64,000 bases of DNA from Rhizodiscina lignyota (lineage: Eukaryota), in assembly GCA_010015805.1 (NCBI GenBank), contig ML978125.1, forward strand, positions 2,108,001 through 2,172,000, read 5' to 3'. How positions within the stretch are numbered: the first letter of the stretch is position 1; each line of letters starts with the position of its first letter. Position numbers and translations under genes: made by a program. Positions 18,217 to 60,293 of this stretch are shown in pieces. The notes under the pieces were generated by a model. The model did not search any database, was not told the DNA's origin, and was given only the letters and a program-made list of their open reading frames with translations.

Positions 18217-18451
18217 CACGAGGATGACAAAATAGTTGAGTCCTATGAAGTTTGAAGATGCTCAGCAGAAGCAAGGTTTCCTCTTCAACGCTAGCGAGAG
18301 CATCTCTGAAAGGTCGATAAGTTATATGCCAGAGTCCGTTTATCTAAAACACACAGCTTCAGCGAGTATAACTTATATTAACTATCGAGGATATACAGCC
18401 TCGTAGTTCTATAGATTGCAACCACGACTCAACTATTTTGTCACCCACTGG
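18217..18451 (+). mobile_element. MITE copy 1 (235 bp, subfamily a)
   Basis: Ends CACGAGGATGACAAAATAGTTGAGTC ... GACTCAACTATTTTGTCACCCACTGG; flanked by ATAGGG (18211-18216 and 18452-18457); collinear with copies 2-4. Confidence 0.9.
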
Positions 18452-19460
18452 ATAGGGGTGGTGGCGCAGCCTGCGGTGCGAAGTCGGATTATACTCGGGA
18501 TCCACTTGAGCGCTCTGAACTTACGAAATGTTGTAGTGTTGTAGATAGATATATCCACGTGTATTTCAACAGTCGCCAGCGATGAGGCATCTTGGATATA
18601 GCGGTACGAGCTAGTCGGAAGAGTTTGCAGTGTGCAGTTTGCTTGTGCTGTATTTGTGCGCAGGTTAAATGAGAACCGGCATGCCGTCGATCTCTCAGCG
18701 ACCAATCCCAGCGTCAGAGGGATCGCAAGAAACAAGCTTAGTGTACGAAGAACGACGCTTCGGAAAGGAGTGATAGTCGCCCTTCGGAAGTGCTTCTAAA
18801 TGCGAGCGACTCTCGGACCGTTGGCAGCTTGTTTTCCTAATATTTCCAAGGTTCGTATACGGACATGCAGGGGCGTGTCTCTGAGCAACACCCGAGCGAT
18901 GCAGTGAATGCGCCTACATAGCAGATATACATGGCGTACAGCGTAGCAAACAGAGGAATAAAGAATAATTTCTTCTCTTGAGAGGCGTATTGTAAGCGTC
19001 GTCTGCGAAAAAGCTGAGCGCCGCCATCAGGAATAAGTGGACGCAGGGCCAAGTGGAATATTGGCAATGCCAAGGCCGGCTTTCTAGAGCGGCGTTAAAC
19101 TGCGGCGAGCGAGTGCCAGCAACAGTGACGCCTCGAAAGCGCTGCACCACTTTCACCACTACACACCATCCACACTCGCCGAATAGACTCAGCGCCCTTC
19201 CATCCATCCGCTAACCGCAGTCTTCACTCTACATTCTCCTCTTCCATCCTCCACCGCGACCTCCCCTTGACGTCAGCAGCACTGCCGCAGCAACGCAACG
19301 CAAAACGCAATCTCCCCAACTGGCCCAGCATACTTCGACCAGCGTGGCATCGACTTACCAAGAAAACTCTCCTCCTCGCAGTGCTGCCGCCGTAAAGGGC
19401 CTGGGCAGCAACCCGTCACTGAAAGTCCATGAGTTCCGGACGCTGCATGCTGCAGATATA

Positions 19461-22400
19461 ATGCCCTCGCTGCTGGCGGAGCGACCGGGGCTAGCAGCGC
19501 AAATACACCCGGCTTCATCACATCTCAGGGACAAACACGCCAGAAGTTCGATCGAGAGGGAGTCTCAAGAGAACCATGACGAGCGGGCGGGCGGCCTGCC
19601 CAACGGCGACGCGTTGAAACCGAATGGCCGCATGTCGAATGGGAAACCTGCATCGGAGAGTTTGCACGAGATGCCCAATGGAGTATCGTCGAGCACAGAG
19701 GGAGATCATCACGGAGCCGTCTGGCATGATAAATACCCTCGAACTTCCTCCCGGCATTCGAAGATGGACTCGGAGCACCAGACGGAACCCAATCGTGTCC
19801 CCAGAGTCAATGGACGACCGGTCACAAGAGACGAGGGCGAGTTTGCATCTGCTGGGAGTGGGCACGAATTCTACCGTCGGTTCGGTGACACGACTGTGGT
19901 CGAACTTACGGCGCCGTCTCAAGCTGATGTGGCGGAAGAGAGTGCAGAGGCTGCTGAGGGTGATTGTGAACCTCTAGCCTCTGCTCCCACTGCTAGTGAC
20001 TGCGCAGCTGAAGTTGAACGGGAACGGTTGGCGAGGCGAGCTACAACTACAGATGGCTCGCTCACAGTTCCAGCGTCTACGTCAATCCATAGAGCCTCAT
20101 CTCCTCCAGCTTTCCAGCACCAAACGCCGCGATCCTTAACTCCGACATCGACCTCTCAATCACAACCACAACCACCTCGGCTTCAGCAACGCCACACTCT
20201 AGAAGTACCGCGTGTTTCAACTTCACGACTTTCGAGAGAGATGACAAATGCTACTCAAGCAGATGGCGAGGTTGTATCGGCAACTGGTCGCTTTTCTCCA
20301 AATACTCCCACGAGACGAAGAGGATCGATGAGCCTGGTGCGAAGAGCGACACGTTCGATAGCGTCTGATCTACATCTCGACGAAGTGCTACCGGACGATG
20401 ATGCTGCACGGTGGGCGGAGCATATCCGGCAGAAACGGGCGAGTAAGCGGAAACGGAAAGACGACGAGGACGACGACAGGGTTGTCGTGGGCACAAAGGT
20501 CGACCAGAATCATGTTAATTGGGTCACAGCATATAATATGTTGACGGGCATTCGATTTACGGTATCGAGGACGAACGCAAAGTTGGATCGCGACCTCACG
20601 GATGCAGACTTTGAGGCAAAGCACAAATTCTCATTTGACATGTTAGTAGTTTACCACCTGCCAGAACAATGATTGCAAACTAACTCTTGATAGAACCGGC
20701 AATGAACTCACACCTTCGGCGAAGTACGATTTCAAATTCAAGGACTACGCTCCTTGGGTCTTCCGACACCTGCGCGCAACCTTCAAACTCGACCCTGCCG
20801 ACTACCTCATGTCCCTCACGAGCAAATATATCCTTTCCGAGCTTGGCTCGCCTGGGAAGAGCGGAAGCTTTTTCTATTTCTCGCGCGACTACAAATACAT
20901 CATCAAGACGATACACCACGCAGAGCACAAATTCCTCCGAAAGATTCTGCGAGAATACTATAATCACGTCCAAGAGAACCCGAACACACTTCTCTCACAA
21001 TTTTACGGCCTTCACCGCGTTAAGATACCCTATGGGAGGAAGATTCACTTCGTCGTAATGAATAATCTTTTTCCGCCGCATCGAGATATTCACAGAACTT
21101 TTGATTTGAAGGGCTCGACTATTGGACGAGATTTCAAGGAAGATGATTTAGAGAAGAATCCGCGGGCCACTTTGAAAGACCTGAACTGGCTGAGGCGCAA
21201 CTTGCACCTGGAGTTCGGTCCCACGAAGAAGAAAGCGTTCATTGAGCAGATGGAACGCGACGTCCATCTGCTGCAGCGGCTTAAGATAATGGACTACTCC
21301 CTTCTTGTCGGCATACACGACCTTGAGCGAGGAAATGAGGACAAGCTTCGAGACAAGACGCTGAAAGTCTTTCAACCAGGCGGAGAAGATGCTGAAGAGG
21401 AGGTCGAGCAAAGGATGAGCAATGTGCTCACCAGAACACCCTCCAAACTGGAGAATGCAAGGAAAGCTAAAGAGTTGAGGCATATGATCAAGACGCAAAG
21501 GCCCATTCCGATGGAGCAGGCCAAGAGTGGGATGCCGGATGAATTGGAAGAAGAAGGGACAAAGAAAGGATTTTATTTTTACAGTGATGATGGAGGGTTC
21601 AGGGCCACGCATGAGAATGACCTGCCGGGAGAGGAGATATATTATCTCGGCATTATTGACTGCTTGACGCATGTGAGTGCACATTCACAAATTGCCGATG
21701 CTGACGCGTTTGCAAATATACTTTTGGAAACAGCAATACTAATATCAACCTGCAGTACGGTTTTATTAAGCGAGCAGAACACTTCTGGAAAGGACTTTCC
21801 AGTCCAGAATCACAAATCTCCGCAGTCCCACCTGAGCGTTATGGCGACAGATTCGTGCGCTTTATTAATGGTATCACCAAAACACGGGAGGCCGCTGAGC
21901 TTGAGAAGGCAGAGGAGCGTGGCATCGCCTCCCCGGACCTCATTGACGACCCACGGCTCTCTGGAGTTAACATGCATCCAGTGAGCAACCAGTCACAAAC
22001 GCACCCAACCAATCAGGAGGCCACTGACAAGGTGATGGAGATGGCGGAGAAGCAGGCCGAGAGAAGCAAGCGACATGGCGCAGACGAGAGCACCGTACCC
22101 AATGTGATGCTCACATCAGCGAGAAGCCCAAGTCCACCCGGGGACCCAGGGGGATACACGTTACCGGTCGTGGAAGAGGATGTCGAAGGCCAAAGCACAG
22201 GCGGGCGGAGTGGGAAGAGTGGAAGGAGCCACGAACCAAGTCCTCATCCTGACGCCGAGATCAGCGCGGAGTCACCGCGATCGCTGTCACTGGGCTTGCC
22301 GGTAGAGCTTCGAAGGCCAAGCGGCGAGATAGAACCGCCGAGTAGACCGCCGCCTACGCCACCCAAAGACAGACTCAGTATGCCGCAGTCGACAACATCT

Positions 22401-22655
22401 GCTGCGAGCCAGGGCAGCAGCTATCGACCTCACACACCGCAGTCGCAATCACCTTCTGTCACGCAAGTTGATGCTGCTAGCGCCGCCGACATGGACGAGG
22501 GGAGCGAGTCGGACGGACCGCCCACACCGCCGAAGGATAGCGTAATGAGTCGCGGGAGGAGTCCGAACAGGGACAAGGCGTTACCGAAGCCACCCGTCGA
22601 AGACGACGAGGAGAACATGGCGGACATGGTGCTGAGACCGCTTGATGCGAGCTGA
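19461..22655 (+). CDS. MSS4: Phosphatidylinositol-4-phosphate 5-kinase (exons 19461-20641, 20694-21672, 21756-22655)
   Basis: [94 protein letters not shown]. Confidence 0.96.
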
Positions 22656-23492
22656 GATGCTCCATGAGCGCGATTCACATTGTCATATTTTGTACTTGTC
22701 CCACACGGACAACAAGGTCTCTTTTGTTGCCTTTTTGGGGGAGTAGACGGAAGTCACGGGGCTTGGATTGAAATTATTTCGAAAGAGCATTACCGGCGTC
22801 GCTTCATCCCTTTTTTGCTAGCATGTTTTCGTCGGTTTCTGTATTAGCCTTACCGGAAAGCGTCTTCAAATTCAATTTTTTGGTGGGGTCCCCTTTCGGG
22901 TGACAACTTAGTCGAAGAGCAAGGACTGGTGTTCTCCTTTGTACAAATAACTTTTTTATAGATACCTACATTAGTGCGTAGTATGGAAATGAGAGACGGA
23001 GAGTCGTAAATCTTAAGGTTCATATGTAGTACCTCACTGGCGTGACGAATTCTTGCGCCCGATTGATCGGTGTTTATCTATACTATCCTACCTTGACGAA
23101 CACCAATCTAAATTCAATAGCTTGTACCACCTTTTAATTATATAAAGCATATTTAAGGTGAAAAGCAGATGGGTTGGGCATGGTGCTCGTTGGACTACTT
23201 GTGCACCTCACATAGCACCTGTAACATCATCAATGGTCCCATTTTGATAGCAAACACGTGGGCTATGTGGGCTGTCTAACTACTTAGTGCGAGGCTCGAG
23301 GTTGATAAAATTAGTGGATCACGACGATATCGAAACGGTGCAGTATGAACAAAGTTCGTCATTCAATGAGAACACTGATGAAAGCCTGATTGAATTCCTC
23401 TGAGGCTGTGGTTAACTATACTATCCTGCTTTAATGATATCATCAATCTTAATCCAATAATCCGCACTACTCTTCGGGTTCATGCAGTCTAA

Positions 23493-26400
23493 CTATGGTG
23501 AAAAGGCAGATGGGGGCGGCATTGTGCCTGTTGGACTGGTCTCGAACGCTGAACCACCCGGAGTCTGAGCAACTGGTGTGCTTGTGCTCCCGAAAGCCGA
23601 CCCGTCAAACTCCCCACCCGACTTCATCGTCCCATTGAGCATGGGGCAAAGCTTTTTGTTCGTCTTGATGTGGCCCACCATACCACAATTTGCGCACTTG
23701 CGTTGAGTGCCGGCAGTCTTGGAACCTCCTGTAGAGGGAGAACCGGGGGTGCCTGGAGATGTGGCGGATCCATTGTGGAGGCCTTTAGCCTTCTCGCGGA
23801 CATGTCGACGATCTTTGTTGCGCTCAAGGCGGTTGAGCTCGTCTTCCAGCCTGTATCCACTTGGTTAATATCGACTTCTGCAAAACGGCACTGCAGGGAT
23901 AACATACATCTTCCTCTGAAGCGCATCTCGCTCAGCGTCACCAGTGGGTGCGGCTTGATCAATCCTGTGGAGAGTAAGTAAGTTATTGGTAGAAATATAT
24001 GGTCAAGTGTAAAGGGAACTCACGTTATGCCCGACCGCTCCCTCTCCTTCTTGGCCTTCACATATGCCCGAATGATTTTCGGATCGTTGACAACCTCCTC
24101 AACTCGCTCCAGCTTGCCAAATTTGTCGTGTTGGTGACGAATGATCTTCAAAACTCGACCCTTTTGGCTGTTTGCGCTGAATCGACTGAACTGGCTGACG
24201 CTGTCGTCCTCACGTCGCGAAAATGCAGCGGGTGTACCGAAATCCGACCTTGGTGTACGACCCGGCATGAAGCTGTCATGGCCGTCTTCCTCGTGGCCAA
24301 TATCCAAGTCCGCGTCAGGGTCTTCAGGGTTTTCTCCAGGCTGCGTGGTTGCCTCCAAACTTCTCTTCTGGCTCTCCCAGATCTTCCTGATGGCCTCCTC
24401 ATAATCCTTCTGTTGCTGTGCGACGTTGTAGCTGTGGCCTCCGAGTTGCTTCTGTCGGACCTTGTCAATCGTAGCCTGGACACTCTCTCCTTGTGCTTTG
24501 AAGCCACCCTTCATACTCGTCTTGATGAAGCTGAACGCCTCTCCACGCCCAGATGGATCGCCAGCCCCGTGCAATTGAAGCATTGCTTTGCTCTGACAAG
24601 CGTTCAGGAAGTTCTTCGTCAGCTGCCACGGTGCAAGCTGCTGCTCCAGGCTCTCGTCTTCCTTATCGCCTCCATCGCCGTCATCCGCATTGTTGGCAGT
24701 GTTTTGGCCATCTTCGTTGTAGCCGGCATCTAACAGGTGTCGATGGCCAACTTGCATGGAATCTAGCAAGCAAATCTCGTCCGGCTTGAGCTGGCGTCGA
24801 ATTCCAGCATAATCTGGAGGCGGAATTTCTTTCCCATCCTTTGGACCAGGAACCCAGACCTGATGGTCGCGATCGTAAGACATGAATTCTCGCATCTTAG
24901 AGCGATTCTGAGGAATTTCTGAACCAGGGAGATGCTCCTTGATGATATCGTTTGTCAAGGGCGGGTTGCGCCTTGGATCATTCTGATGCTTTTGATAGAT
25001 TCGCCACGAGATCATCTTGAGTCGCTTCTTGGCCGCATCGGTGACCTTGCGAGAATGTGTGCCGGGAACCTCTACAGACGGCAATTGCTGTCCAACAACA
25101 TACAGGTTCTGCATATTGCGCAAATAATATTGCTGTCCGCCCATGCCTGTCGTGCTTCGACCGACAACGAAGTCGGTCCCTTTGGGACTGTGCTGCCACA
25201 CAGGAGCACGGTACATGGTGTTGTGAAGGGTTGGCTGATGTTCACCTGGCGCGATGTTTCCGAAGATGGAGAAGGGGCTCTTATCCTGAGGAAGAAGGAC
25301 ATGAGTGTCGCCCCATTCATACTTGGGTCGGCTGGTGTCCTCTTCATCCTTGCGACGATAGTAGTTGACGAGCCTGCTGCCCATACCGAAGTTGGACATC
25401 ATCATGGGGTACTCTTCCGAATACTCAAATAGCGAAATATCAGCATTGTCATTGAGTGACAACTCCTTGGAAGAATCGAATGCTTGCTGGATTGCCAGAC
25501 TCCTCTGAATCTTGCGTTTCTTGCTCTCGCGTTTGTTGAACTTGATGATGCCTTGTGGTTTGAAGGATAAACCAGGGCGATGGAAGGAACGTGCGTCGCG
25601 AGCGCTAAGCTTCACCTTGTAGAATGGATACTGCAGCTTGATAGCAGGCAAACTGTGCTCGACTGTGAGATTGCTGAGAGTGCTGCGGATTTTGTGCGAA
25701 TGATTCTCCTTCAGTAGATCATAGGCGTCGTCGTTCGAGATATTGTATCTTCGGTTCAAAGATTTTGTAAAGCTCCCGTTGACATCCTTTCTGAACTCGC
25801 CACCTGGCTTCGGAGCCTTTGCTTGTACAGAGTCCGGCTGCTGAATGTCAATCAACATTCGCGGGTCGTTTAGATCGAGCGTAACGCGGCGGGACAAGAT
25901 GGCATTTGTGGCTTCCGGATCGTCGAGCGAGGGGAACGTCTCGTAATATATTGGAAGAGACTCCGATGTTGCACGCTCTCCGATCCTACGTCGCTTTGGA
26001 GGTACCAGCCAGTCTGCAGGATCTGCGTGTCGCTTCGACGGTGACGTCGCCTCGACGGAACCAGGTGAGACCTCAGTCATGTCTGGGGGGCTCCCAGCTT
26101 CACTTGAGCTTCGATCAACATCCCAATCCTCGCACAGGATAGCAAGATCCTTCATGGTGATATTGCCAATCTTCTCATTCTCGTCATACTCATCCAACTC
26201 GACCTCTTGATTTTGCTCTTCCTCCTCGTTCTCCGGGCCAACAGTCCTAATCAGTCCACATCGCTCCAGCTCCTGAGGGTCCACTCGTTGAGTTGCGCCG
26301 GAATATGTGAGCGTGAAGGTCTTCGCCTGGTCTTGTAGTAGCTCAAAGCTCACTTTGGACGGCTGTATAGGCTTAGGAGGCTTTGGCGGCGCTTTGGAGA

Positions 26401-33540: not shown

Positions 33541-33571
33541 CTTCAACTGCTTCAACTGCTTCAACTGCTTC
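33541..33571 (+). repeat. 9-bp tandem repeat (CTTCAACTG)x3 plus CTTC
   Basis: cttcaactg cttcaactg cttcaactg cttc, upstream of the gene starting at 33685. Confidence 0.85.
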
Positions 33572-36159: not shown

Positions 36160-36393
36160 CAAGTGGGTCACAAAATAGTTGAGTTGTGGCTGCAGTAATA
36201 GAACCGCGGGGATGTATATACTCGATAGTTAACACAGCCCATATACCCTGAAGCCAAGTATTTTAGATAAATAAACTCTTGTATATATTTAATCGACCTT
36301 TCGGAGACACTCTCGTCAGTACTGAAGAAGAAACCCCGCTTTTGCTGTATATATTCAAACTTCATGGGACTCAACTATTTTGTCACCCTCGTG
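36160..36393 (-). mobile_element. MITE copy 2 (234 bp, subfamily a, inverted relative to copy 1)
   Basis: Ends CAAGTGGGTCACAAAATAGTTGAG ... CTCAACTATTTTGTCACCCTCGTG; perfect 5-bp TSD CCCCG (36155-36159 and 36394-36398). Confidence 0.93.
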
Positions 36394-39312: not shown

Positions 39313-39545
39313 CAAGTGGGTGACAAAAAAGTTGAGTCGTAGCTACAATATGTCGAACCGCGAGGATATATACCCTCACTAGTTTATATAGATTATACAC
39401 ACAACGCTGCACGTTTTAGATAAATACACTCCGGTATATATTTAATCGAGCCTTTAGAGATGCTCTTACTTCTGCTAAAGAATAAAACTTATTCTTACTG
39501 CAGCCGTTTAGTTAAAGCGGGCTCAACTATTTTGTCACCCGCGTG
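39313..39545 (-). mobile_element. MITE copy 3 (233 bp, subfamily b)
   Basis: Ends CAAGTGGGTGACAAAAAAGTTGAG ... CTCAACTATTTTGTCACCCGCGTG; perfect 5-bp TSD TGCGG (39308-39312 and 39546-39550). Confidence 0.93.
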
Positions 39546-42500
39546 TGCGGATATATCACATATATTAGAGCATGAGTTCAGACAACATCGGGCTATTCGT
39601 AGTTCCGTTGAACTTGTAGATTCAAGCTTGATCAGTAATATTTGAAGTGATCGAGGACCGGCGTCTCTCCGAGGAGCTCTTCAAGTGGACTCCGTTGAGT
39701 GGATCTGGCTCCAGGTCAAAGATTCTAGAATGGATCGACAAGCTTACAAGAAGAACGGACGACATGCTTTGTACTGCCTGATCTGCTCTATGATAGCACG
39801 GAGCATCTTTTATTCCCGCGAAATGCGTGGCAGTGATCTTCAACTGCCCAGTTATCAGAGGTTCAGATGAGAGAGATTCATACGCGCCTCGGAATCCAAT
39901 TGCTCATCGCAGCATGGGGTGCATTTTAGTAGAAGAAATATGACCTCCAATTCGATCGTTAGTGAAGGCGAGTAAGATTCTCATCGTTTGCTCCTAAAAC
40001 CACTCGAAGCGAAGAAAACGGACATCCTGGTGTCTCAGACGACAACGCCCTTCGAACTCCAACAATGTACGACAAGTCTGCTAAGACTGCACCCCAGCAA
40101 GCAGGGCGGGACGATGGAATCAGGGATGGTTGCTTTTGATGTCTCTTAGAATTGCTTCTGGTCAGCGATATTCGCCATTCGCCACATGTAGACTAGCGAA
40201 TCGCAGACTTCCAGGCTGACGAGAAAGGAGCGCGAAGTTACAATAATACATCAGCACGCCGAGGTGACATGGGCAACCGTTTAGCGACCTCGCCCAACAG
40301 GCCACTGGTTGATTCCGCTGAGTGTGAGCGGAGACAAGGTGGTTGCCAGAATCGCTCCCGATAAGGCTGACGGTCAGTCAATTTGAGCTAGGCCGCCCGC
40401 AGGTTTTGGCCCAGAAACCTGGTACTTCTTTTTTTTTGGGTTCTCGATGACCCTGGTGCGGGCCAATGTCTGCATGTCAGAACTTTAACTGTGAGCTCGG
40501 ATTTAACATCGTAATGGCCGCACCACAGTATAAGCCGGGCCTTACAATGTCCCTGAGCCCGCGGCATCGACTCACGAATGCTCTGAAAGACGATTGCGAC
40601 AGGACATTAAAGAAATTTCGTAAAATCACAAGCGAGGCACAGATAGGGGTGTGAGCGAACGAAAGCGACAAAAATTTAGAGATCATAGTCATGATTAGAA
40701 GAATGTGAACTCAAAATGTCAATAATCTTACCAGATTCTAGGGACTGGGGCGCCTGCGGCCGCAGTTAACGGCGAAAGGCCGGTGATCCATAATCCCACG
40801 GGGAAGCACGGTGGAACATGGAGGCCGAATCAAAGTCGCCGAAGCTGTAGACGACGGCACAAATGGTCGATGGAAGCTGCGAAGAAGCTAGCTTCCGCGA
40901 GCGAACGAGACCTGTAATAACGCCCCTTTTCCGTGACAACGAGAAGTAAAACTTCCAAGGCAGGGTTGGTAAGCTGCTCCCCAACAACCTCGAATGCGAC
41001 TTTACTAGCGCAAGGAAGCTTCTTAGAAGTGCTAGGGGCAACTTTAAAAGAGCGGCTCCGCACATTGCTCGCTCGCTGGAAAACAGCTCATTTGTAACTG
41101 AACAGGTCTCATATGCAGGCGAAGATCCTGGGAGCATACTTGTTCGACTCGAAGGAATCTCAACGCTACACACCTCGGTAATGGCGAGGCCAACCTACAA
41201 GATTGATTCCAATTGAACACTGTGCAGTTTGACAAATGAGAATGATCTTCTGGCCCCGGATATGAAAAGAACGTGAAAGCAAGAAATAGAACATCAATCC
41301 GAGCATATTTTCTTGAGAGCGGGAAAGAAATCGCGATGTCTTCGGTCCGATCATCATCCTGCAAACTCGTCAATAATTCTAGATGTCTTATTGGCTTGAT
41401 GTGGCTTTAGACACATAAGCCAGAGGCGAAAGGCGCCATTCTGGACATCAGAATATTCTGCGGATCAGGTGTGGCTGCCTCGTGATTATGTGAGCGTAGA
41501 ATATGAGGAATCAAACTTGATTTGACAATGCGAAGGCGCTTGTGTGGCAGTATTAGACGATTAATAACTTGAGGAAAGTTCAAATTGCTCCACCCTTCAT
41601 GGCTGAGACGGAGGACGGTTGATAGTATGATTAAATGTAAACCCGAATTTGTGAAGCTTGAAAAGTTGTACCATTACCTATTCTCGATAGCCGCGGCTAC
41701 GCATTTTCCTGAAAAAGGACTGCACCGGGTGGTCTGACATAACCGCTTTGTAAATGGTTGGCAAGGCAGAATGAGTACGTCGCAGAGCCTGATTGGCACG
41801 TTCTAATAAGGGTCCAACAGGTAAGGCTCTCAATTGGGAGGGGATCCCAGATCATGGAACTCTCTAGTTTTTGGTTCAGTTGAGAGACTTGCAGACTGCA
41901 CTTTGTAATTAGCTTCGGCATGGTTGCCGATATGAAAAGGCTGCATGCTTGACTATGTGGGAAATGATAGATAATTACTGATTGTTGCTGATTGTTGATT
42001 CCTTTAAGAGGTGTGAGAATTTTGCATTCCGGCCGAGTTAGGCCAAGATAACATGCTGTCTTTGTCAAGAGTTCTTTCCTCATTTGGCAATAGTATGTGA
42101 CGGACGGAGTCAGAGAGGTTTTGATTAGGCAGCACTTGAAGGACGGTACATACAGGTACATGCGCTCCTGGAATGTCCTTGATATGCCCAAAGAGGGCGC
42201 CAGTTCTGGCTGTCAGTAATCGAGACCCCAATCTAATCTGACCAAGCATATCCACGGAGACCGTTGAAGAGCAGGTAGGTATTCGAATGAAAGCAGCTCG
42301 GCGAAGTTTGAAGGCAGCTCGCGCCAAGAGCATTGAATGACTGTAGCGCGAATACGATATCCTAATTCAGCTCTCCACTGAGATGAAGTTGTCAGTAGCT
42401 CTCGAACGGTCTCGTCGCTTGCTCGGAGTTCGGGCCAACGTTTTTCGCACTCTTTCGGAGGTGTGCTCACGCTTTTCCCAATCCTCGGCCGAGGCTAACG

Positions 42501-47431: not shown

Positions 47432-50400
47432 TTGCTGGTCGCCATCGGATTGCTTCTAGTCCATTGGACAACATTGAGTGTGACCAAATAGGAAGTCGAA
47501 CAAGGGTAATATAAAAGACCACTGCTCTTCCACTCGTGTGAGAGCATGTCTGAAACCTTCATTTAACGTCGTCTAGATAGCATCTATTGATAATGGATAG
47601 CTTCCACGCACATCATCTATATTGACTAAAGAGAATATGCTACCAGAGGGACCGATATTCGTAGCCCTGGCTCAACTTCCTCTGGCACTCTCGAGCCAAC
47701 TTCACTTGCATCGTGTGCTTCACCGCAAAAATGTTCAAATGACTATGGTCTTCTAATGCCGTCCCCCGACATGAGGGAATTCAACCAGGTTTGCAGACTT
47801 CTCCTCCTTTTCCCCGGCAGTACACGTCGCTGTCTCCGCCTCCGCATTCATGCGGCTCTGACGGCATGGAAGACTTGAGGAAATTAAGGTCATGAGGATC
47901 AGCTTCATCTGCATTGTGATGAAGCTTAACGCCCGACTGTAAAGAATGAATGAAATATCTCCCTATAATGCATTCAATGAATTCAGGAGCACCCCTTTTT
48001 CATCCGCGGAGAGTGCTCGGAGCTCGCTCTGCTCGCGCTGCTCGCGCTAGAGCACTCCACCATTTGTCCGATACGGCGATGCAGCGAGAGCCTCATGCAG
48101 TTGTTTTCTCATTGCCCGAGCCGACTGGCAGATACATTAGAATGCTGTCCGTCATAACCGGATTCTGGACGCTATCACCGACATTTCGTGGATGTTAAAT
48201 TGCATAACGGAGTCACCTGGCGCAAAGCTTTGATATCACGTTAACTTCATACAGCAACTTGAGGTATTTTCCCCCAAACGCCCTGGTGCGCCAAGATAGT
48301 CGCCACATTGCTCCGTCGCGGACGAGATCCCTCCCGCACCCGACGAAGCCACAGGGGACGTATCCCAATCAGGCATACGACCCTCAGTCGGCCAGCGGAA
48401 TTCTTCATTTCCATGGAAAGGCCCCGTTACCGGGCCGCTCGTGAAGTCCGAATAGCGAACAACAAGGCGAGGATCAAGAGAGGGTTCGTCGATGTGCCGG
48501 AATCCGAGAGATTTTCGTTGGTCGAGCGGCCGCCCAAAAGGGCACTACCCTTGCAACAGCCTAATAGCTGGCGTCGTGGGATAGAGCCTTTCTGAGTGAA
48601 GGTGTCTTGGTAATTCACTTCCAAAAATCCAAGTAGGTACAGTTGTGGTACGCACTCCAGATGCACTCGATCGAGATCAAAAGAATTGATTCTGGAGGAA
48701 TTGGGGCTGCTGAATTTAACCTCTCCCTCCGGCGGAGAGTCAAAGTCATAATTTCATGTCCGTTCGGGCTTTAAAATCCAAGTGTGCGGTATGGGTTGCA
48801 CGCGTATCTCACTTGACAGCGGGAAGATCAACGCCTCACCACCACGCACGTTGTGGCTTACAAGTCGCACCCAAATCACAGCTCGGGTACAAGCGATCAA
48901 ACCTTATCCTGCAGGATGTACGATGTCGATCTGGGTTCAAGATACTCCAGTCTCCCAGTCTTCTTTTCTTTCCTTCTTCGCTGACTCTCCACCAGGGTGA
49001 GGCTCAAATCGATTGCACCAATTGTTGCACGCCAACCCTTCCACCTTAGAAACCAGCACGTAGATCACACATTCGCGATATCACCCCGTCTCACTTTTCG
49101 TGGTCCGAAATTTTGATCCTGATACGCCTGCAATGCGACCTTTGCCAATATGCAAAGTGCGCAGAATACCAAGGAAATGATCCAACGACCACTGTAACTC
49201 ACAGGACGAATACGACTGGGACACGTGTGACAATGATAGTATCGTTTGCTACACTTACTAAACTTCAATCAGCTATTCATGGCACCAACGAATACCCATA
49301 CGACAAACGAGTGCGAAGCACCACCAAAAACCATCCGCATATTAGTATTACCCGACGGAGAGTATCGATAATCGCCTTGGTCTGCTGTGAGACTCGGCAA
49401 GTTGCTGTCAGCATGCTTGTTTGTAAGAGCAGGTTTAGCTAAGGGACCGGTGTGCTTACCTCATGGCGTACAACCGTCTCGAAAGAGGCGCAAGTCAAGG
49501 ATTGCGAGAAGTGGCTCCACTATTGCAGATCTGGAGATGCAAGCTGCGGACGCTCATCTCGGTTCGTTTGGGTGCACTATCCGTTGAGCTTCATGTGATA
49601 ATATCCGGGGAAATTTTAGGATTTGAAGGGGTCGAAATTGTTGATCTTCCATCCTCTCTCCATGGACATCTGTGTCTTCATGCTGAAGCGAGTGAGATAT
49701 TGCAGTCCTTCGGCACCGAATGATGCGCTTGAGCAGCAAGGTGCCATCCCACGCAAAAAGCCATGGGGGAGGGGCTCGTTAACCGTCACCCTTCTATGCA
49801 ACCACCAACGTCCAAGCGTAGGGTAGCCTCTGAGGTGCAGCTATCTCTCAGCCATGTTGTAGGTAAATTCGTTTTCGTGTTATCGGGTAATTCAAATCTC
49901 TTCGTTTCCGAAATACTACTACTCTATTCCTGTGTCCATGAACTCGCTGGTCGCGCATCCTTCAACACCACTACCCCTCCGACTGGAGAGTTTCTGATCC
50001 CTCTAGCAACTGGAACGGACTATCCTCCACAGTTCGACCGACGTTGGAGGCGTGATGGCCACGAGGAAATGACGTCGTTTGCATCGCCCGCAGCATTTAA
50101 GCTCTGCAGAGGCGATCGGTAGTGAAGATACGAGCGTCTATTGTGGAGCCGCATCATCTTGTAGATCCTCCGTTCGCGACTGAGTCTGTAAGTCTCGGCT
50201 TCTAGCTTTCGAATGCGCTTCTCGACAGCCTACTCTACCTACGAACTATGATGCTTTGAGCGTGGAGCCGTCCCCGCTCTAATTGTCCCGCGGCAGAGCT
50301 TCCATACCAAGACATGGAGTCCTTTTCAACATGCCTTTCCCTATCCAGAGATAGCAATTATTCAAATTCCGATTGCTATTACGCTCTCGCCGAATTCAGT

Positions 50401-52183: not shown

Positions 52184-52819
52184 GATGCCAGAGGAGATAT
52201 GACGGAGCAAAAACGGAGTATTATATAGATCTCCAGAATACTCTATATCATATGGGTGGTGGAGAGGAGTTTTGAAAATGGCTTGAAGATTGGAACACAA
52301 TACAAGGACCAATGATCATGAGTTGAAGTTTCAACGGAAGCGGGAGCAGACTTCCCTCGAGGATAAGAAAAGAGTTGCCCCGCAGCCTCGAATGGATGAG
52401 TGCACAATCTCTTCAATTAAGACAGATTGTATTCATTATAATTAAGTGACAGAGACGGACATTTGCTGAAGTATGTGAACTCGGATTTAAAGGTACGATT
52501 GCGTGCGGTAGAGGGTAAAATGGGTTTTCGCTGTCTCCTTCCTACCTTCATTGAGGCGTCAACTTTTTGGTCATCCCGACCTCAATTAAAAGTCCAGTCT
52601 AGATAAGGTTAAGCGCCAAGCTTTAACAGATCTTCTTTAGCAACGCCACCCGTGTTTTAGGGGCTGCAACACACTCATGATTGCTTCTTCCTTCATGAGC
52701 AGCTGACTGCTCGGCCTCCAAGAGCAGATAGCATCTTTCCCTTCGACGGTATTATACTCTATTTCCTATCACCCGGTCTTTACAATCGGCTCCAAATTTG
52801 ATAAAATCGATACTATGAC

Positions 52820-55436
52820 ATGACGTCGACGCACTCTCGTCCCGGAGATGGAATCCACCGCACCATCAGCCAACATTTGGCTGCGGTGCGATCGCGTGAG
52901 GAGCAGGAAACGCTACTCGGAGATGAGGAAGAGGCCGACGGAGAAGGATGCATTGGATTAAATGACCAGATCTATTTCACGCCAAATCCACATTCATCCT
53001 TACCAGTGTACAAGACGATCCACAGGTATTCTCCACCGCTGCCAGGATGTATTACCAGATGCTGATAAAGCTGCAGGATACGGAGGTTGATCCTAGCGAC
53101 TATAGGTGAGTAATTCGTACGATTGTTTGTCGCTCGGAATCTCATTCCGTCCGTAGAGGATCCATATACCCTTGAGCAGTTAAGGAGCGTTCGCATGAAT
53201 GTCATGATTGTCAGGCCACTCATTGACCGACTTTACGACCAAGACGATGTTTCAATCGGTACGTATACTCCATTTTGACCAAGTTAATCCGTTCACTTTT
53301 TTCCCCTTGAACAGTCTGAATACGGACCCTCATCTCTTGCATGTCTCGAGGGTGACAAAACAGCTCGCCGCCGGGAGGCTGTAATGCCTAAAAGCGCTCG
53401 GCTCTTACCCTATAAAGTTAGCGAGACTATCTCTGGAAGCCTTGTTGTACACTTTTTGGGGTATACACAACAAGGGCGTACTATCAAAGACCTTGCACGC
53501 TTTAATGGCTGTAGAGCAAATTGAAAGCGTCGGCCGCGCGTGTGGGGAGGTATCGTTCGATTATACGCGGAGGCTATAATATAGCTTCCCAGTACCTTGA
53601 AAGTTGTGGCAAACTTGTCACCCTCGAGCATATCTTCTATGTACTGAGAAAAATCGGGTTCGTTCTAACGCGCCGATAGTGTACTGTCTCCTTGTCAACC
53701 GAGCTCAGTTCCTCCGCGACCAACATAGCCAGTCTCATCATTTGACAATCAATGGCACACGTGCAAGTCTTTGCGAACTCCTCGCTACCCGCGTGCTGCG
53801 TCGATTTGATGACGACAATCCTACACGGAAAGGCCTGCTCCTTCTCTCTAACATTCTCGTCGCTGGATTCGAACCATTCCAGAATGCCCCCGACGAAGTG
53901 CTGCAGAGCAATGATCATCTTCGGGACTGGCATTCGGCACTGAAACGTACGGGCTACGAGCGAGCATTGACGGCCCTTGAAATTGCCATAATCACCGAAA
54001 GCAAGCTTTTCCTTTCATCGTCCTCCGTGCAAAAGGTCATCGACGCAGTATATGTTGGCCGCGTCGTGTATACTCCACTTACCTTCATCGATATTATCCC
54101 CGATCACTACAAGCACCGTCCTATCTCACTCTACGATCCTCGCCGGGCGTCGCTCCTTAATCAGTACCGCATGATCGTACCGCGAACCCGGAACTTCATT
54201 GAAGTCGGACAATTTATCGCTCTTCTCGTGCTCTTCATGCTCGCTCTCGCGAACAGAGACGACAATATCTTCACAGTTTACGAGATCTGCTTTATGGTCT
54301 ACGGACTAGGGTGGTGTCTTGATGAATTTGCCTCTATTCTCGAGCATGGCTGGCATGTGCATACGCAGAACTTGTGGGCGTTTCTCGACATCACGTTCCT
54401 TGTCATCTACTTGGTCTACTTTATCATGCGTTTGCATGCTCGCGCTACCGGCGACGTCGAATTAGGGCGCCAGGCCCTCGATGTGCTAGCAATTGCTGCA
54501 CCCATCCTTCTACCGCGCCTGGCATTCAACCTCATGCCGGAAAACATCCTCTTCATCTCCCTTCGCGCGATGATGGGAGACTTCATGATTCTCACTGCCA
54601 TCGCCTTCTGGTGTTTCGCTGGGTTCTTGCTAGCCATGAATTGGCTATCTCGGTGGGGCGCAGAGCACGAAGGGTCTGATATAGACCCTCTCACTATTTC
54701 CAAATGGATGCTATGGATCTGGTTCGGGCTTGATGGAACAGGAATTACCCGTAGTGTTGATCTCCATCGCATATGGGGTCCAACAATGATGGTCCTGTTC
54801 GCGTTTCTAGGCAACACGCTCTTCCTAACCATCCTTGTGTCGATGCTTTCGAATACCTTTGCCAAAATCGTGGCAGACTCCGCCGCCGAGATACAGTTCC
54901 GACGCGCAGTTTTGACCTTCGAAGGCGTCAAAAGCGACGCCATCTTCGCTTACCGTCCACCCTTCAACCTCCTTGCCGTGGTTATTCTCCTACCACTTAA
55001 ATTCGTTCTCAGTCCACGCTGGCTCCACAAAGTCAACATCACCGCCGTCCGCATCCTCAATTTCCCCTTCCTCATTCTTCTTTGCTACTGGGAGCGGAAC
55101 ACCCTCTGGCGTTCACGTCCAAGCACCGTTCCACACGGACCATCAAAGAAAAACAAGTGGCAGTTCTGGAACTGGGGCCGCTTCAGCTTCTCCGTGCACG
55201 GTGACATCCAAGCCGTTTTCGACGCAGAGCCGCCACGGGATATGGTTGATGAGATCGAAGAGGAGGACATGTTAGACGAAGACATCTGGGCGAATGGGCT
55301 CATGGGAGAAGGCGGAGGGTTTGGGAGGAGAGCGAGTCAGTGGTCGGCGAGGGAGAGTGAGGATGGAAGCGGGGACAGGAGTTGGAGTCGCAGTATTTAC
55401 ACAAGGCGCCGTCGAAGCAGTATGGTGGGGAATTAG
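52820..55436 (+). CDS. YVC1-like TRP-family non-selective cation channel (exons 52820-53025, 53077-53105, 53157-53258, 53680-55436)
   Basis: DPYTLEQLRSVRMN, VYCLLVNRAQF, RASLCELLATRVLR, ALEIAI, multiple TM segments, WIWFGLDGTG pore region, NTLFLTILVSMLSNTF, YRPPFNLLA. Confidence 0.88.
53345..53628 (+). mobile_element. MITE copy 5 (284 bp, longer variant) inside intron 3 of the channel gene
   Basis: Perfect 14-bp TIR CTCGAGGGTGACAA ... TTGTCACCCTCGAG; flanks CATGT/CATAT (4 of 5 match); internal gttagcgagactatctctggaag matches copy 1 gctagcgagagcatctctgaaag at the same offset. Confidence 0.82.
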
Positions 55437-55537
55437 TAGGCTTGGAGATCTCGGCTGCTTCTTGGATCTTCCAATGTTTTGGCTTAGGGTTGGCAAAATT
55501 TCGATTATCTACAATGTATAGCGCCCTAGGTTTGACT

Positions 55538-55704
55538 GAAGATTCCCATCACCGCCGAGAAAAGCCCTCTCCTTTCATTGCCTCTGTACAAAAAGTCATT
55601 AACACACTATACATACATTAGCTATGTTGGGTATACCCCAATTAGTTTCTTCGACATTCTCCCTGATCACTACGTACAGTCACTGGCCCTTCTCACTTTG
55701 GATC
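55538..55704 (+). pseudogene. Decayed partial duplicate of channel coding segment ~53979-54138
   Basis: cctctgtacaaaaagtcattaacacactatac vs cctccgtgcaaaaggtcatcgacgcagtatat; translates to SVQKVINTLY and YTPISFFDILPDHY vs SVQKVIDAVY and YTPLTFIDIIPDHY; contains indels and stops. Confidence 0.8.
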
Positions 55705-56758
55705 ACACTTTGGACACATATGACTAACATCGCAAGTCACTTGCGCCTTGCTGACAATCAATTGAAATTATTATAGCGAAGAGAAACATTGACATTACGA
55801 GTAGGGCCAAAGGTAGAGACAACGTCCCCGGACTCAGCCCCGACCTCAGCCACTTGTCAGGATCTACACCTCCATATTGCGACACCAAGCTGTTCCGTTC
55901 TACCGATTCTCATCGACGATGGCACTCCTCAGCTGTGGGCCGGTTTCGCGCCACTGCATGAGAAAAATCATGTTTTTGGACCCGTGAAGTCCATTGCCAA
56001 CTGTTTGGCGCTGTCGTCGCGTTTGTCCGGGAACGGCGAACCAGCCAGGTGGACCTCCCCCATCAAGATTGTGGAAGATATTCGTCTGCGAATTCTTCGC
56101 TGCATTTATCCAATTGTTAGAGATACCATCGTGACAGCTGAGCACAAAAGCAAGCATCGTGGTAGGCGGGGAGTGAGACGATTACCGCTACCTGCCATCG
56201 ACGGGACTATTGACGGAAGGAAACGTACAGCTTTAGCGAAAGGATCGGGAGACAGAGGGTCGCTGAAGCCACTGAAAGTATTGATTCATTTATTTTCTGC
56301 GATTTAGCGAGATGGGTTCGCACGTGCGACGTTGAGATGCAGAAAATGATCGTGATATCTGTTTCCTTCCGTGTTCGACTTCTGAAAAGGGATCCCGAGA
56401 ATCCAAAGAGGTATTGAAACAGCATGAAATGAGTATCAGGGAACATATTGAGATGCAGTTCTCCGTTGATAACCCATCATGATCGGCGTCTTCCGCCTTC
56501 GCATGTCGTTTGCGCTGCTGCCTGTTCCAATGTCTCAAGCGGTTTGAATGCTCTGGCATACGTAGCAACTTCTGTTATAATACATTCCTGCTATTATCCT
56601 GACAGTTCTCCAGTTCAAGAGATACAAGTACTTCCGCCCCTTCCCTCCACCTCCATCCGCACACTTTCACACTTTCAAGAACTCATCTTGTACTTACCAA
56701 CCTCTACCACAGTGTTAGTCCAAAGGGCCCCCAAAGCACCTTTACACTAACATGATAG

Positions 56759-57443
56759 ACAGGAAGAGCTCACGTCGACCAGCAGCTTACGCCTCTCCCA
56801 GTATGGTAGACTCCTTGCCTGCCAGCTCTACCCTCATGACTCCAGCTTCAGCGAAGAGGTACGTCTGCTGCCCAACTCCAGAACAATTAAACTGACACAA
56901 GACAGCAACAAGCTGGCCAACAAGGCGGGTTCGACTGCGAACCCATCCAATGCCAAAGACGTCACCGAGATGGCCGACAAGCTCAAGTATGAGGTCATCA
57001 ATAACCCGACGGAGAGCGGCCCTTCTACCACGGCCACTCCAGCCACCGGCTCCATCGAGGGCGGCAGCGACGAACACAACGAGGGACTCCTTCAATCTCC
57101 CTCGGCGGTCTCCAAGAATACCAAGGACGTCAAGGACGTCAAAGAGCTGGATGCGGGCCAAGGCGCGGTTCCAGACTCTGGCGAGCCTGTCGCCAATCCG
57201 GCGGCCTTCGAGTTCAACCTCGCCCTTTCTGGAGACTGGAAGGAGCTTAACCTGTTCTGCAGCGTCGAGAACGCCTCTTATCAGCAGCTCCCGAAAGCCT
57301 CTCCGGCTGTTCGCCGCAACGCTGCGAAGGCCCTGGTGCTCATCTTGAAGTACCGCAACACCTTGCTCCCGTTCGCCTTCCTCATCTTGGGCCCGGCGAG
57401 GGTCCTGTCCTTCCTCCTCTTACTCTGCTTCGCGGCCTTCTGA
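56759..57443 (+). CDS. Hypothetical spliced protein with hydrophobic C-terminus (5' end uncertain, likely further upstream)
   Basis: Codon-biased ORF 56970-57443 extends upstream across a GTACGT...CTGAC...CAG intron (~56859-56906); further branch/acceptor CTAAC...TAG at ~56747-56758; ends LLPFAFLILGPARVLSFLLLLCFAAF*. Confidence 0.55.
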
Positions 57444-57978
57444 GTATACGGGATACATGCGGCGGCCTGCACTTTGATGGGTGGACGACCGACACGGAGG
57501 TGATCATGGGACTCGAGAGAGATATGTAAGAAAAGAACAATAGTGACACAGGAATAAAAGTTTGCTCTCGGTATCTTTTTCTGCTGGCATGGGCGCGCTG
57601 GAGGCTGTACTTACTCCAACTTTCGCTGTAGCTAGGCCGCGATTTGTGCAAGTTAGGGTTCTGATAGCAAAATTGAGCAATGAAATGCTATCAATCAACA
57701 GGGCAGTAGTTGTGATGTCGTCCCTTCACTACACAACGCAGCTTACACCCAGTACGTCGAGAGCAGTTAAGACCCGAGAGAAGGTGAGATGGATTGATGC
57801 AGTTCAATTCATAGCGTAGCAATACAATCGATGCTTCGTGATAACAACACTAAGGGAATGTAAAATCAAGGTTCAGCAAATCATAGCCTTCTTGAATAGT
57901 AAGCGGTTCCTCAGGGACCACCAAGTCCCGGTTTAGCCGACGCTTTTTGGCATTGTACTTTCTCGTAGGTCGTCGGAC

Positions 57979-58080
57979 GGCCTCTTCTGATAAGATGAAG
58001 GGTATCGCAGGCTGACGAATGGCCTTTTCTGACAAGGGTGAAGGTATCGTTTGACGAGTGGCTGTCTCCTTCAAGGGATA
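57979..58080. repeat. Degenerate tandem repeat, units of 42 and 39 bp plus a partial third
   Basis: ggcctcttctgataagatgaagggtatcgcaggctgacgaat / ggccttttctgacaagggtgaaggtatcgtttgacgagt / ggctgtctccttcaaggg. Confidence 0.7.
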
Positions 58081-58190
58081 CCGACACCGTTCCTCCGCTA
58101 GAGTCGCGTAAGCACCCAGCATACGAAGGCAGTAGCAAACAGGCATGGAGCGATAAGAGTGTCTTTCATCTCTCACCACTCCGATACGAG

Positions 58191-59237
58191 TCAGCTACTA
58201 CCCCTTGGCCTTCCTCTCGGTCTACCTCTCGTGGCGCCTCTTCCACCCGGCGGATTGCCTTGTCCATGTCCGTTCCCCGTTCGCATTTGGTTCATTTGCG
58301 TATCGGCGGTTGTGAAGTGCGGCGCTGGAGCTGTGACGCTAGTTGCGTACAGTGGATGTGGCGCTGCAGTAGGAGTCTCCCACTTCACGCTGTGGAGGAG
58401 CGGATATAGTCCCTTTACGTCGTTAATCACTTGTCCTAACATGTTTGTTTGCCTCGCCATCTCGGCTGCTACCCATGCCTCGTGTCGCTCGCGCTTGACG
58501 CGGTTCTGGTCGTGGAATGTTGCAGACGTGGTGCGCCATCGCTCCTCGCGTTGATGGTACTCGGACGATGCTGTGCGCCGGCACGTTTCCACCCATTTGA
58601 TTTGCTTCGTGAGTTGTCTGATTTCTTTCTCCAAATCAAATGGGGCGGAAGGATCATCATCTTCTTCATCTGGAGCAGTTGGGTGCTCGCCGTCCTCGGG
58701 ATTTACAGCGAGGGCGGCATTGGCTTGCGCAGTAGCTGCAGCCGCAAGGTCAGGAGTCGATTGTTGGCCGTTCTGCTTCTGGCGTTTCGCGGAAGGAGTT
58801 GTGGTGTCTACTTCGCCAGCGTAGTCCATGTAGCGCTTGCCTTTGCTGACAGTGGATGCGCCAGTGGTGGTTGCAGGCGCGTCGAGTGGGTTTATTTTGA
58901 TGATTAGACGCGACTCGTCAGCGGTGCTTGCGTCGGAAATGGCAAGCGCGTACGATTGACGATCGCCAATTGTGAGCTTGAACTCGCCGGAGAGCTTGAT
59001 GGTCGCGTCGGACTGAGGCTTGAGGTTGTCGAGCATCTCCTTCAGAAGGTTGCGAATGCTGCGGCCGGCCTCGGTGACGACGTCCTGGTCTTTTTTCCAT
59101 GCTGATGCTGATGCTGTTGATGTTTCCCCGTCTGGAGCGTGGTCGGGAGCATTGCCGACATCATCGTTCGGAGTTTGATAGGTGTCCTCAGCTTCGGCGT
59201 CGCCGTCGCGAGAGGAGGGCTCGAATGGTGAATCCAT
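58191..59237 (-). CDS. Hypothetical nuclear protein with coiled coil and C-terminal AT-hook-like motifs, 348 aa
   Basis: Long ATG ORF; NLS-like PSAKRQK; coiled coil LEKEIRQLTKQIKWVETCRR...REERW; ends TRGRPRGRPRGSS. Confidence 0.75.
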   Translation of the reverse strand: MDSPFEPSSRDGDAEAEDTYQTPNDDVGNAPDHAPDGETSTASASAWKKDQDVVTEAGRSIRNLLKEMLDNLKPQSDATIKLSGEFKLTIGDRQSYALAISDASTADESRLIIKINPLDAPATTTGASTVSKGKRYMDYAGEVDTTTPSAKRQKQNGQQSTPDLAAAATAQANAALAVNPEDGEHPTAPDEEDDDPSAPFDLEKEIRQLTKQIKWVETCRRTASSEYHQREERWRTTSATFHDQNRVKRERHEAWVAAEMARQTNMLGQVINDVKGLYPLLHSVKWETPTAAPHPLYATSVTAPAPHFTTADTQMNQMRTGNGHGQGNPPGGRGATRGRPRGRPRGSS

Positions 59238-60069
59238 GGATGCGAGCGGAGATGCGTGACTTGCGATTGCGACCGGCCGATCTGGGTGGGTGCTGTTGAT
59301 TTAATACGTTGCTTATTGCGAGCGCGCTGAGACCAACCGAATGTAGCTGGGCGTGCTCCGGCGAACGAGAGGCCTATTCCCGATCAGGTGCCCCGAGCGA
59401 AGGATGGCATAATAGCATGGCTGGGAGCAGGGGGTAATATATAAATGCAGTTGGTAAGCTGCCGATTTGAGTGAGGGGTGGACGAAGCCTGGCGGACGAG
59501 CGTAGGTAACGTTAGCAACTAGCAAACAGCCACAACAGCCCAGTTCTCGCTAGTGCGCGGAGCGGAGAGGGACGGCAGTGCACGGCCCGTCCTTGGCGGA
59601 CATCACGTGACAACCATCAACTGCTGGGCGTATGGAGGGTCGGCGGGAGCCTTTGACGACGAGAACATATCGATGCTCATTTGCTGCCCATGACACACCG
59701 AGACACAGAAATAAATATAATGCTGTGCTCCGCAATTCGTACTTGTCCTATACCGGTGGATTTTTCAATCGTCCATTTTCAATCTTCGCATCTGTCCCGC
59801 TCCTAAATCGAAAACTTGGTCTTGTACGTAGAGCCCATTACTTGTTTGGTTGGAGGGACATCAAGGTTCTAGAGCAGATTACAAGAGCTAGGCCTACCTT
59901 GGTAATCCTCTTGTGTATCCTACTCAGCTCTTCACGAAAATAGCAGATGCCAGGTTCGAATATCGAAAAAAGAGAGATCAACCAACAGCCCGGTCCGCAA
60001 CTGACTGTATTGGAGTGCTCAGCTAGATCGGCTAGGAGTTACTGCAAGACGTAGAACCTCATTGGGTAC

Positions 60070-60293
60070 CACGCGGGTGACAAAATAGCTGCGCCCGATC
60101 AATTGGAACGGCTGCAGTAAGAACAAGTTTGGCTCTTCAGCACGAGCAAGAGCATCTCTGAAAGCTCGATTACATATACCTAGAGCGTGTTTGTTGAAAG
60201 CACGTAGCTTTAGTGCGCATAACCCATATTAATTAAGGAGGGATGCGGTTCGACATATTGCAGCCGGGGCTCAACTATTTTATCACCCACCTG
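60070..60293 (+). mobile_element. MITE copy 4 (224 bp, subfamily b)
   Basis: Ends CACGCGGGTGACAAAATAGCTG ... CTCAACTATTTTATCACCCACCTG; perfect 5-bp TSD GGTAC (60065-60069 and 60294-60298). Confidence 0.92.

Follow-up and report, generated by a model that had tools for sequence, protein, structure and literature searches.

A miniature transposon family of Rhizodiscina lignyota with mostly 5-bp, GC-rich target-site duplications and a candidate Tc1-like mobiliser

A 64,000-nucleotide stretch of the Rhizodiscina lignyota genome (assembly GCA_010015805.1, contig ML978125.1, positions 2,108,001 to 2,172,000; hereafter the window) carries several copies of a family of inverted-repeat transposable elements of miniature size (MITEs). 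The copies are short, non-coding and multicopy and carry inverted repeats at their termini (TIRs) and duplications of the target site (TSDs), in agreement with the initial annotation of the window, which had called them a non-autonomous TIR family. Tc1-like transposase genes have been found elsewhere on near-identical ends with 5-bp TSDs, and a relic of the same transposase clade is present in R. lignyota. The family is probably the product of a Tc1-like lineage, mostly of the DD37E type and widespread among filamentous ascomycetes, in which insertion would occur with a stagger of 5 nt and not at TA. The role of this clade in moving the R. lignyota MITEs is inferred from the comparison of sequences. 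The initial annotation had excluded Tc1/mariner and had pointed to Transib/RAG or hAT5/hAT6 transposons. Neither proposal is supported, since the only transposases found attached to the family ends are Tc1-like and the hAT copies of the genome lack such ends. The transposase had also been expected to be atypical for ascomycetes; the mobiliser does appear unusual, but its clade is common there, and it is the target duplication that is atypical.

The TSDs have been scored in 69 two-ended elements from 663 kb of fetched R. lignyota DNA, with the loci picked by TIR or DNA matches. Elements were selected when both ends were above a fixed score, the flanks were not consulted, and two of the rows share one right end. 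Exact TSDs of at least 4 bp flank 38 of the 69 elements (5 bp in 26, 6 bp in seven, 4 bp in two, and 7, 15 and 17 bp in a single element each), and one-mismatch TSDs are found at others (11 of 5 bp, four of 6 bp, one of 7 bp and one of 14 bp). As a control, shuffled pairs of flanks gave 45 exact and 208 one-mismatch duplications among 4,692. None of the 69 copies has TA on both sides. The 5-bp TSD reported from the window is the predominant form (26 of the 38 exact TSDs), but the length is not fixed, since 6 bp occurs often and 7–17 bp rarely. A few of the 6- and 7-bp TSDs may alternatively be duplications shorter by one base, with an additional base at the tip, but in several of them both ends are canonical. 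The copies at L028:1496-1646, L043:1501-1746 and L015:1496-1730 have duplications of 15, 17 and 14 bp, respectively, and two of these copies are atypical in length (151 and 246 bp).

The exact 5-mers are GC-rich, as had been noted for the window, with 84 of 130 bases (65%) being G or C compared with 49% in the flanks. Their central position is A or T in 20 of 26 cases (p = 0.006), while their outer positions are G or C in 78 of 104 (p = 6e-8), and 18 of the 26 do not contain TA. The targets are a loose palindrome, S-S-W-S-S (where S is G or C and W is A or T; CCWGG-like), the pattern that a symmetric transposase dimer would choose. In the same genome, a TA-flanked, CAGTGG-ended hairpin MITE of the canonical Tc1 type, adjoining a decayed DDE_3 fragment, has been observed at L244:2197-2360 (contig C14). 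Elements of the TA type are therefore still recognisable in R. lignyota.

The 19-bp TIR core occurs at least 127 times in the 33.4-Mb genome (with at most one mismatch), and the reversed pattern does not occur at all, so the family is not due to chance. A DNA search of the genome returned at least 145 candidates, 40 of which were scored. The family has of the order of one to a few hundred copies. The window makes up 0.19% of the genome, so that ~0.24 of the 127 cores would be expected in it, yet it contains 7 (~29 times the average). It is thus a hotspot, and the very high genome-wide copy number extrapolated from it in the initial annotation overshoots. Clustering has also been observed on contigs C1–C5, where 21 of 47 elements have a neighbour within 10 kb (2.9 expected; none of 10,000 simulations reached as high a value). 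Local hopping as the cause of the clustering is unsupported, because neighbours within 50 kb are as unlike as distant copies (median likeness 0.72 vs 0.72), which favours regional hotspots of insertion or retention.

Most copies (52 of 69) are 233–235 bp long, and ~234 bp is the typical length of the family. The ends are asymmetric, with CAC at one end only and CAA or CTC at the opposite end. Among 60 aligned copies, the median identity is 83% to the consensus and 72% pairwise, with a maximum of 96%; the family is old. Transitions dominate the decay of the copies, and C-to-T changes are most frequent at CpA (18%) and CpG (17%), a pattern that would fit repeat-induced point mutation (RIP) and methylation. 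Some copies have been rearranged. At L095:5157-5880 (contig C10), one left end is followed by four right ends with 165-bp spacing, forming a tandem array of MITE right halves that are 67% alike. The copies at L078:145 onward (contig C2), L003 and L109 are internally interrupted or replaced by other sequence, and one of them runs into AT-rich, RIP-like DNA.

Long elements with the same TIRs, which the initial annotation had regarded as the way to the transposase, are absent from the R. lignyota stretches read, but a 1,300-bp example has been found in metagenome contigs. These contigs were scanned with a degenerate 19-bp end pattern, which gave at least 121 stretches, 80 of them with long flanks. 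Most of the matches are unpaired, and several of those inspected lie in coding-looking DNA; the unpaired matches were therefore taken as chance. Among the matches listed, to which the counts in this and the next paragraph refer, there are 18 candidate pairings. Ten pairs have an end identity of at least 18/25, and eight of these have an exact 5-bp TSD, one has an 8-bp TSD, one has a 4/5 match and none has TA. One further pair with 17/25 end identity has a 5-bp TSD, and the other seven pairings (16–17/25 identity, no TSD) were set aside. TA flanks were found in none of the 11 TSD-type insertions.

The 1,300-bp element (L143) is a single insertion represented by four loci from two contigs (L143/L144 and L151/L152) and has the TSD CCAAG. 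Its ends, CTCGCGGGTGACAAAAAAG, agree with the R. lignyota ends in 17 of 19 bases. The first 27 bp are identical at both ends, and the inverted repeat reaches ~68 bp inward (79%). A single, broken open reading frame (ORF) starts 100 bp inside the left end and stops 81 bp inside the right end. This layout, with one ORF between short TIRs in ~1.3 kb, is that of IS630–Tc1–mariner (ITm) transposons. Two elements of 100 and 101 bp at other sites are deletion derivatives of L143 (one exact, one with two changes), and both have 5-bp TSDs. A profile of 47 transposase homologues was then run over all fetched loci. In L166, a left end identical in 18 of 19 bases to the commonest R. lignyota CACGCG end is followed by a heavily mutated transposase of the clade (E = 1e-16), and the ends of L166 are common to the MITE L222, which has the 5-bp TSD CTTAG. 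In L135, a right end adjoins a transposase C-terminus (tblastn E = 4e-7). All three transposase fragments beside family ends are Tc1-like. Viral contigs gave no relative and two unpaired TIR matches, taken as chance, and prokaryote genomes gave distant matches only.

The L143 ORF matches DDE_3 and HTH_Tnp_Tc3_2, in both cases below the Pfam cut-offs, and these domains are detected in 43 and 25 of the 47 homologues, respectively. The catalytic residues D168, D273 and E312 are kept in 44, 46 and 46 of the 47. L143 and the clade thus have the DDE/D transposase with a helix-turn-helix (HTH) that is expected of the ITm group. Among the 106 pattern-matching proteins (226 in the set), a D-to-E spacing of 37 occurs in 55 and one of 38 in 26. 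The clade is, as judged from its sequences, mostly DD37E, with a single predicted ORF of ~365 aa that combines a Tc3-type HTH with a DDE domain. Of the solved sequences, the catalytic domain of Sleeping Beauty comes closest to the clade profile (E = 8e-20, against 0.01 for Mos1), and the fold of an AlphaFold model (pLDDT 81.8) matches the structures of Mos1, Sleeping Beauty and SETMAR. At E ≤ 1e-10 there are 81 homologues, of which 11 carry a species name, in each case that of a filamentous ascomycete (genera Ophiobolus, Clathrospora, Macroventuria, Bimuria, Byssothecium, Rutstroemia, Xylogone, Parathielavia and Pseudoneurospora). At E ≤ 1e-30 there are 529 clusters (50% identity), a number in which fragments and some neighbouring Tc1-like proteins are counted. 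A quick tree of 45 rows places L143, the R. lignyota relic and those named ascomycete proteins that were included within one 34-row branch (SH-aLRT 100); the other rows are four distant Tc1-like outgroups and seven weaker matches, with no named ITm references.

The clade has several characteristic motifs, namely SPDL.PIE as in the Tc1 family, EEDGDSGHG, and the Cys pairs C128/C131 and C191/C194. Of the 47 homologues, 44 retain C128, 43 C131, 46 H171, 37 C191, 44 C194 and 45 H214. EEDGDSGHG and the Cys pairs are wanting in the aligned segments of Sleeping Beauty and Mos1, except for one Cys in the Sleeping Beauty loop. C128/C131 align with the WVPHEL stretch of Mos1 and C191/C194 with the loop that follows the first of the catalytic Asp residues, which we take to be the linker and the clamp loop of the dimer interface. 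It can be speculated that these residues form a Cys/His zinc site at the linker and clamp loop with a role in widening the stagger.

In the R. lignyota genome, the L143 C-terminal piece found nothing when used as a query. Full-length homologues found one mutated relic of the clade, 206 kb from the window, with 44% identity over 91 aa (E = 6e-21), and this relic falls inside the transposase clade. No repeated long element with family ends was found in 40 stretches of ~10 kb behind unpaired ends or around clusters, and the unpaired ends in the stretches read are decayed MITEs or chance matches. The link of the R. lignyota MITEs to the clade is therefore made by end identity, TSD type and the relic, not by a junction. 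Two DDE_3 loci in the genome belong to other Tc1/IS630-like groups and are without family ends. On the minus strand of contig C22 (L243:~1430-2450) lies a spliced gene for a Tc1/IS630-like transposase, in which the DDE domain is open and close to which there are no TIRs; it is possibly domesticated or end-less.

Several observations weigh against a Tc1-like mobiliser with a 5-nt stagger. The TSD is wanting in 14 of the 69 two-ended copies, and the one sequencing run that covers the region, which is probably the source data, shows no empty sites. No R. lignyota element in the DNA examined joins an intact TIR pair to a transposase. The relic is single-copy in the genome, and at approximately the expected left-end distance it has one degenerate end-like site (position weight matrix score 8.7, against a background of 0.19 per kb per strand), which is only suggestive of the left end of a relic element. 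Among the matches listed, L143 is the sole full-length transposase-bearing insertion, at one site, and its ORF is broken by stops and a frameshift. The MITE bodies have no sequence in common with L143 beyond the ~19 terminal bases. Taken alone, the profile match of L135 is weak (E = 0.014), and the evidence for 5-bp TSDs in the clade comes from the TIR-linked loci, not from its other members.

The published systems are compared here as they are described in the accessible parts of the cited papers. A different, undetected DDE enzyme of the Transib/CMCT, KDZ or hAT5/6 type could have moved the MITEs, with the likeness of their ends to L143 arising by convergence or cross-mobilisation. The CMCT clade, in which CA..TG ends with 2–5-bp TSDs are typical, has been described together with hAT5/6/7 and Kyakuja, which give 5–7 bp (PMC12730594). 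The R. lignyota family resembles Transib/CMCT in its 5-bp TSD and CA(C) termini (PMC12730594), and the genome has no direct MITE–transposase junction that would contradict such an enzyme. On the other hand, both sequence and fold show the linked transposase to be Tc1-like and not RAG1-like (three of three TIR-linked fragments among the matches listed), and CAC is present at one end only, many ends being CTC or CAA. Transib is known to target GC-rich sites, a preference that the family has in common with it. The 5-bp length holds for 26 of the 38 exact TSDs of the family, and the TSDs, mostly 5–6 bp, are shorter than the 7–8 bp of KDZ. The RAG1 (PF12940) and KDZ (PF18758) profiles have no match in the R. 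lignyota genome, but they also gave none in the controls, so these two negative results show little. Transib has been reported absent from fungi by Muszewska et al. (PMC5751038). No hAT transposase bounded by family ends was found, as none of the four hAT-domain (PF05699) loci has an end score above 12 in the surrounding readable DNA. Taken together, we consider an enzyme of another DDE group unlikely. A ~3.4-kb AT-shifted hAT family is present in the genome as four copies (L102, L103, L104 and L105) that are 87–97% alike and all have stop codons.

A further alternative is that L143 is a Tc1 element of the ordinary kind with TA duplication, which became nested in, or was captured by, the shell of a MITE from another superfamily; its 5-bp TSD would then be uninformative about the enzyme. 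There is only one complete example among the matches listed, and TA-type Tc1-like elements with CTCGTG tips do exist, as shown by Birute of Zymoseptoria (PMC7174668, PMC10853768). This explanation is very unlikely, because the ORF directly follows the ~68-bp inverted repeat (79%) and leaves no room for an inner element, L166 (left end) and L135 (right end) show this layout again, each independently, and the ends resemble the impala/mimp TIR pattern. Birute itself (DTT/DXX_Birute of Zymoseptoria tritici; a 343-aa ORF in 1,884 bp, with no Repbase match when reported) is likewise a fungal DDE element with CTCGTG tips (PMC7174668). It differs in being reported as TA/CTCGTG, and its TIR continues TTGCAAGCTT where that of the family continues GGTGACAAAA (PMC10853768); the comparison was made by ends, TSD and description, not by protein. 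Least probable of all is that the repeats are dispersed regulatory or RNA elements and not insertions, which the location of all window copies outside coding exons, the conserved length of 233–235 bp (52 of 69) and the clustering would allow, but most copies are flanked by site-specific duplications, the copies differ in orientation and in where they lie relative to genes, one of them sits in an intron, and they are decaying with a transition bias.

The Tc1-like lineage with a 5-nt stagger remains the preferred explanation, and it can be compared with other members of the ITm group, for which TA is the TSD (PMC7325037, PMC5630946, PMC13469147). The ~1.3-kb single-ORF layout and the ~30-bp TIRs are those described for Tc1 (PMC7325037). 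DDE_3, HTH_Tnp_Tc3_2 and the SPDL.PIE motif are also shared with the Tc1 family, which includes Sleeping Beauty and impala of Fusarium oxysporum with its MITE mimp. The DD37E spacing is also listed for impala and TRT (PMC7325037). The difference from the Tc1 family is the TSD, which is 5 bp (often 6, rarely 7–17), GC-rich and palindromic, not TA. As the likely enzyme is Tc1-like but TA is not duplicated, the family has not been filed as canonical Tc1/mariner. The mimp pattern CAGTGGG.GCAA[TA]AA (PMC6131394) is similar to the family ends CAAGTGGGTGACAAAA, but the tip of the family carries one base more and TA flanks are missing, which by ends and TSD places the family outside the impala/mimp subfamily. 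Exceptions to plain TA have been described in Blepharisma, where Bogo/BogoMITE have TAA and BstTc1 has TATA (PMC9942856). Like the family with its probable enzyme, these elements combine an ITm-type transposase with numerous MITEs and a TSD that is not simply TA (PMC9942856), but their TSDs are invariable words made up of A and T in which TA is retained, whereas the TSD of the family varies in sequence and length. Styx/REP9, an IS3EU-like element of Zymoseptoria, is likewise a TIR element of a dothideomycete in which copies are clustered and the TSD (6 bp) is not TA, and it differs in having 7.9 kb, four genes, an integrase-type transposase and an unrelated TIR (PMC8232023, PMC10853768). The Dici and Paracoccidioides Trem elements were set aside, being TA-type wherever a TSD is defined. 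No matching element appears in the accessible parts of PMC8232023, PMC10085805, PMC9977792, PMC2836289 and PMC8471628, or in those of PMC13004909, including 12 of its 14 supplements. A literature search, with Repbase, Dfam and subscription journals outside its scope, found no description of a Tc1-like lineage in fungi that duplicates 5 bp; it is quite possible that Repbase or Dfam has a catalogued entry for the family.

Based on these observations, a mechanism can be proposed. The MITEs would be non-autonomous members of a ~1.3-kb Tc1-like DNA transposon lineage common in filamentous ascomycetes, which would be characterised by GGGTGACAAAA-type ends and 5–6-bp TSDs. A transposase supplied in trans would bind the C(A/T)(C/A)GNGGGTGACAAAA ends, and its dimer would bring both ends together, cut the element out and join it into a new site, on the assumption of cut-and-paste transposition. 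The two target strands would be attacked ~5 nt apart at S-S-W-S-S (CCWGG-like) sites and not at TA, and repair of the gaps would leave the 5-bp duplication. A looser spacing would yield 6 bp fairly often, and uncoupled joining of the two ends may underlie the rare 7–17-bp duplications. The source elements in R. lignyota would later have been destroyed, leaving the short MITEs. With one mutated relic found, the source elements appear dead and the MITEs would be their fossils.

In the window, all five elements of the initial annotation were reproduced at their coordinates with the same ends and flanks, and three more decayed copies are present. The copy at 18217..18451 (+ strand, 235 bp) has a CACGAG left end, a CCAGTG right end and the TSD ATAGGG, readable as 6 bp or as 5 bp with a single additional base. 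It is intergenic, lying ~480 bp past the stop of a gene that appears histone-H1-like by our reading of its Lys/Ala/Pro repeats and upstream of a PIP5K gene. The copy at 36160..36393 (− strand, 234 bp; TSD CCCCG) lies between divergent PrpF and GrpE genes, that at 39313..39545 (− strand, 233 bp; TSD TGCGG) is intergenic, and that at 60070..60293 (+ strand, 224 bp; TSD GGTAC) lies between divergent ORFs. The TSDs of these four ~230-bp copies are exact, and the copies align end to end with 70–79% identity. The fifth element, at 53345..53628 (+ strand, 284 bp), has the TSD CATGT/CATAT (4/5 match) and is located in an intron of a YVC1/TRPY1 channel gene (53259-53679, GT..AG), across which the reading frame is continuous. 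It gave no BLASTN alignment with the four ~230-bp copies, and by nhmmer it matches model positions 3–119 of the family profile, the first half only (E = 3.8e-7; best control match on the reversed window, E = 3.3). It has 16 other matches across the R. lignyota genome and belongs to a distant subfamily with CTCGAG ends.

The further copies were detected with the family profile. The copy at 47473..47695 (+ strand; nhmmer E = 1.2e-17) retains one CTCGAG end and has the flanks ACAAC/CCAAC (4/5), that at 52356..52581 (− strand; E = 1.3e-6) has two degenerate ends and has lost its TSD, and the half copy at 23295..~23436 (+ strand; E = 1.2e-7) begins with a CTCGAG end. Apart from the intronic 284-bp copy, the window copies are intergenic (seven). 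The window is gene-dense and intron-bearing, with Pfam matches including ARID, PIP5K, PrpF, GrpE and the YVC1/TRPY1 channel, and its genes appear to be those of a filamentous ascomycete. None of the 26 long ORFs scanned with Pfam is a transposase, as the initial annotation had stated for the window, and the copies are old, gene-less and probably inert. A second, unrelated repeat family of ~200 bp has been observed at ~40880-41100 of the window; it ends in a short inverted repeat, GAGACCTGT..ACAGGTCTC, at 40907-41115, and has 71–74% matches at nine places in seven other fetched R. lignyota segments, several of which adjoin copies of the main MITE family. A 54-bp inverted repeat (76%) with 185 bp between its arms is located at 689-981, upstream of a histone-H2B-like reading frame.

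The TA duplication serves as a hallmark of Tc1/mariner and is used for classing MITEs that have no transposase. A Tc1-like clade with 5–6-bp GC-rich duplications would mean that such fungal MITEs have been misfiled, and it supplies a named candidate enzyme for them. In the broadest form of this proposal, to which we give even chances, a large undescribed ascomycete Tc1-like lineage has abandoned the TA rule for a flexible 5–6-nt stagger at CCWGG-like sites, possibly by means of the Cys/His (zinc) site, and is the missing mobiliser of orphan fungal MITEs with 5-bp TSDs that are filed as Transib, hAT or unclassified. Together with its canonical relatives of the Sleeping Beauty type, the clade would offer a naturally occurring pair in which to study what determines the choice of target and the spacing of the cuts, a question that is directly testable because many of the homologues look intact, and the clade may yield a GC-targeting tool.

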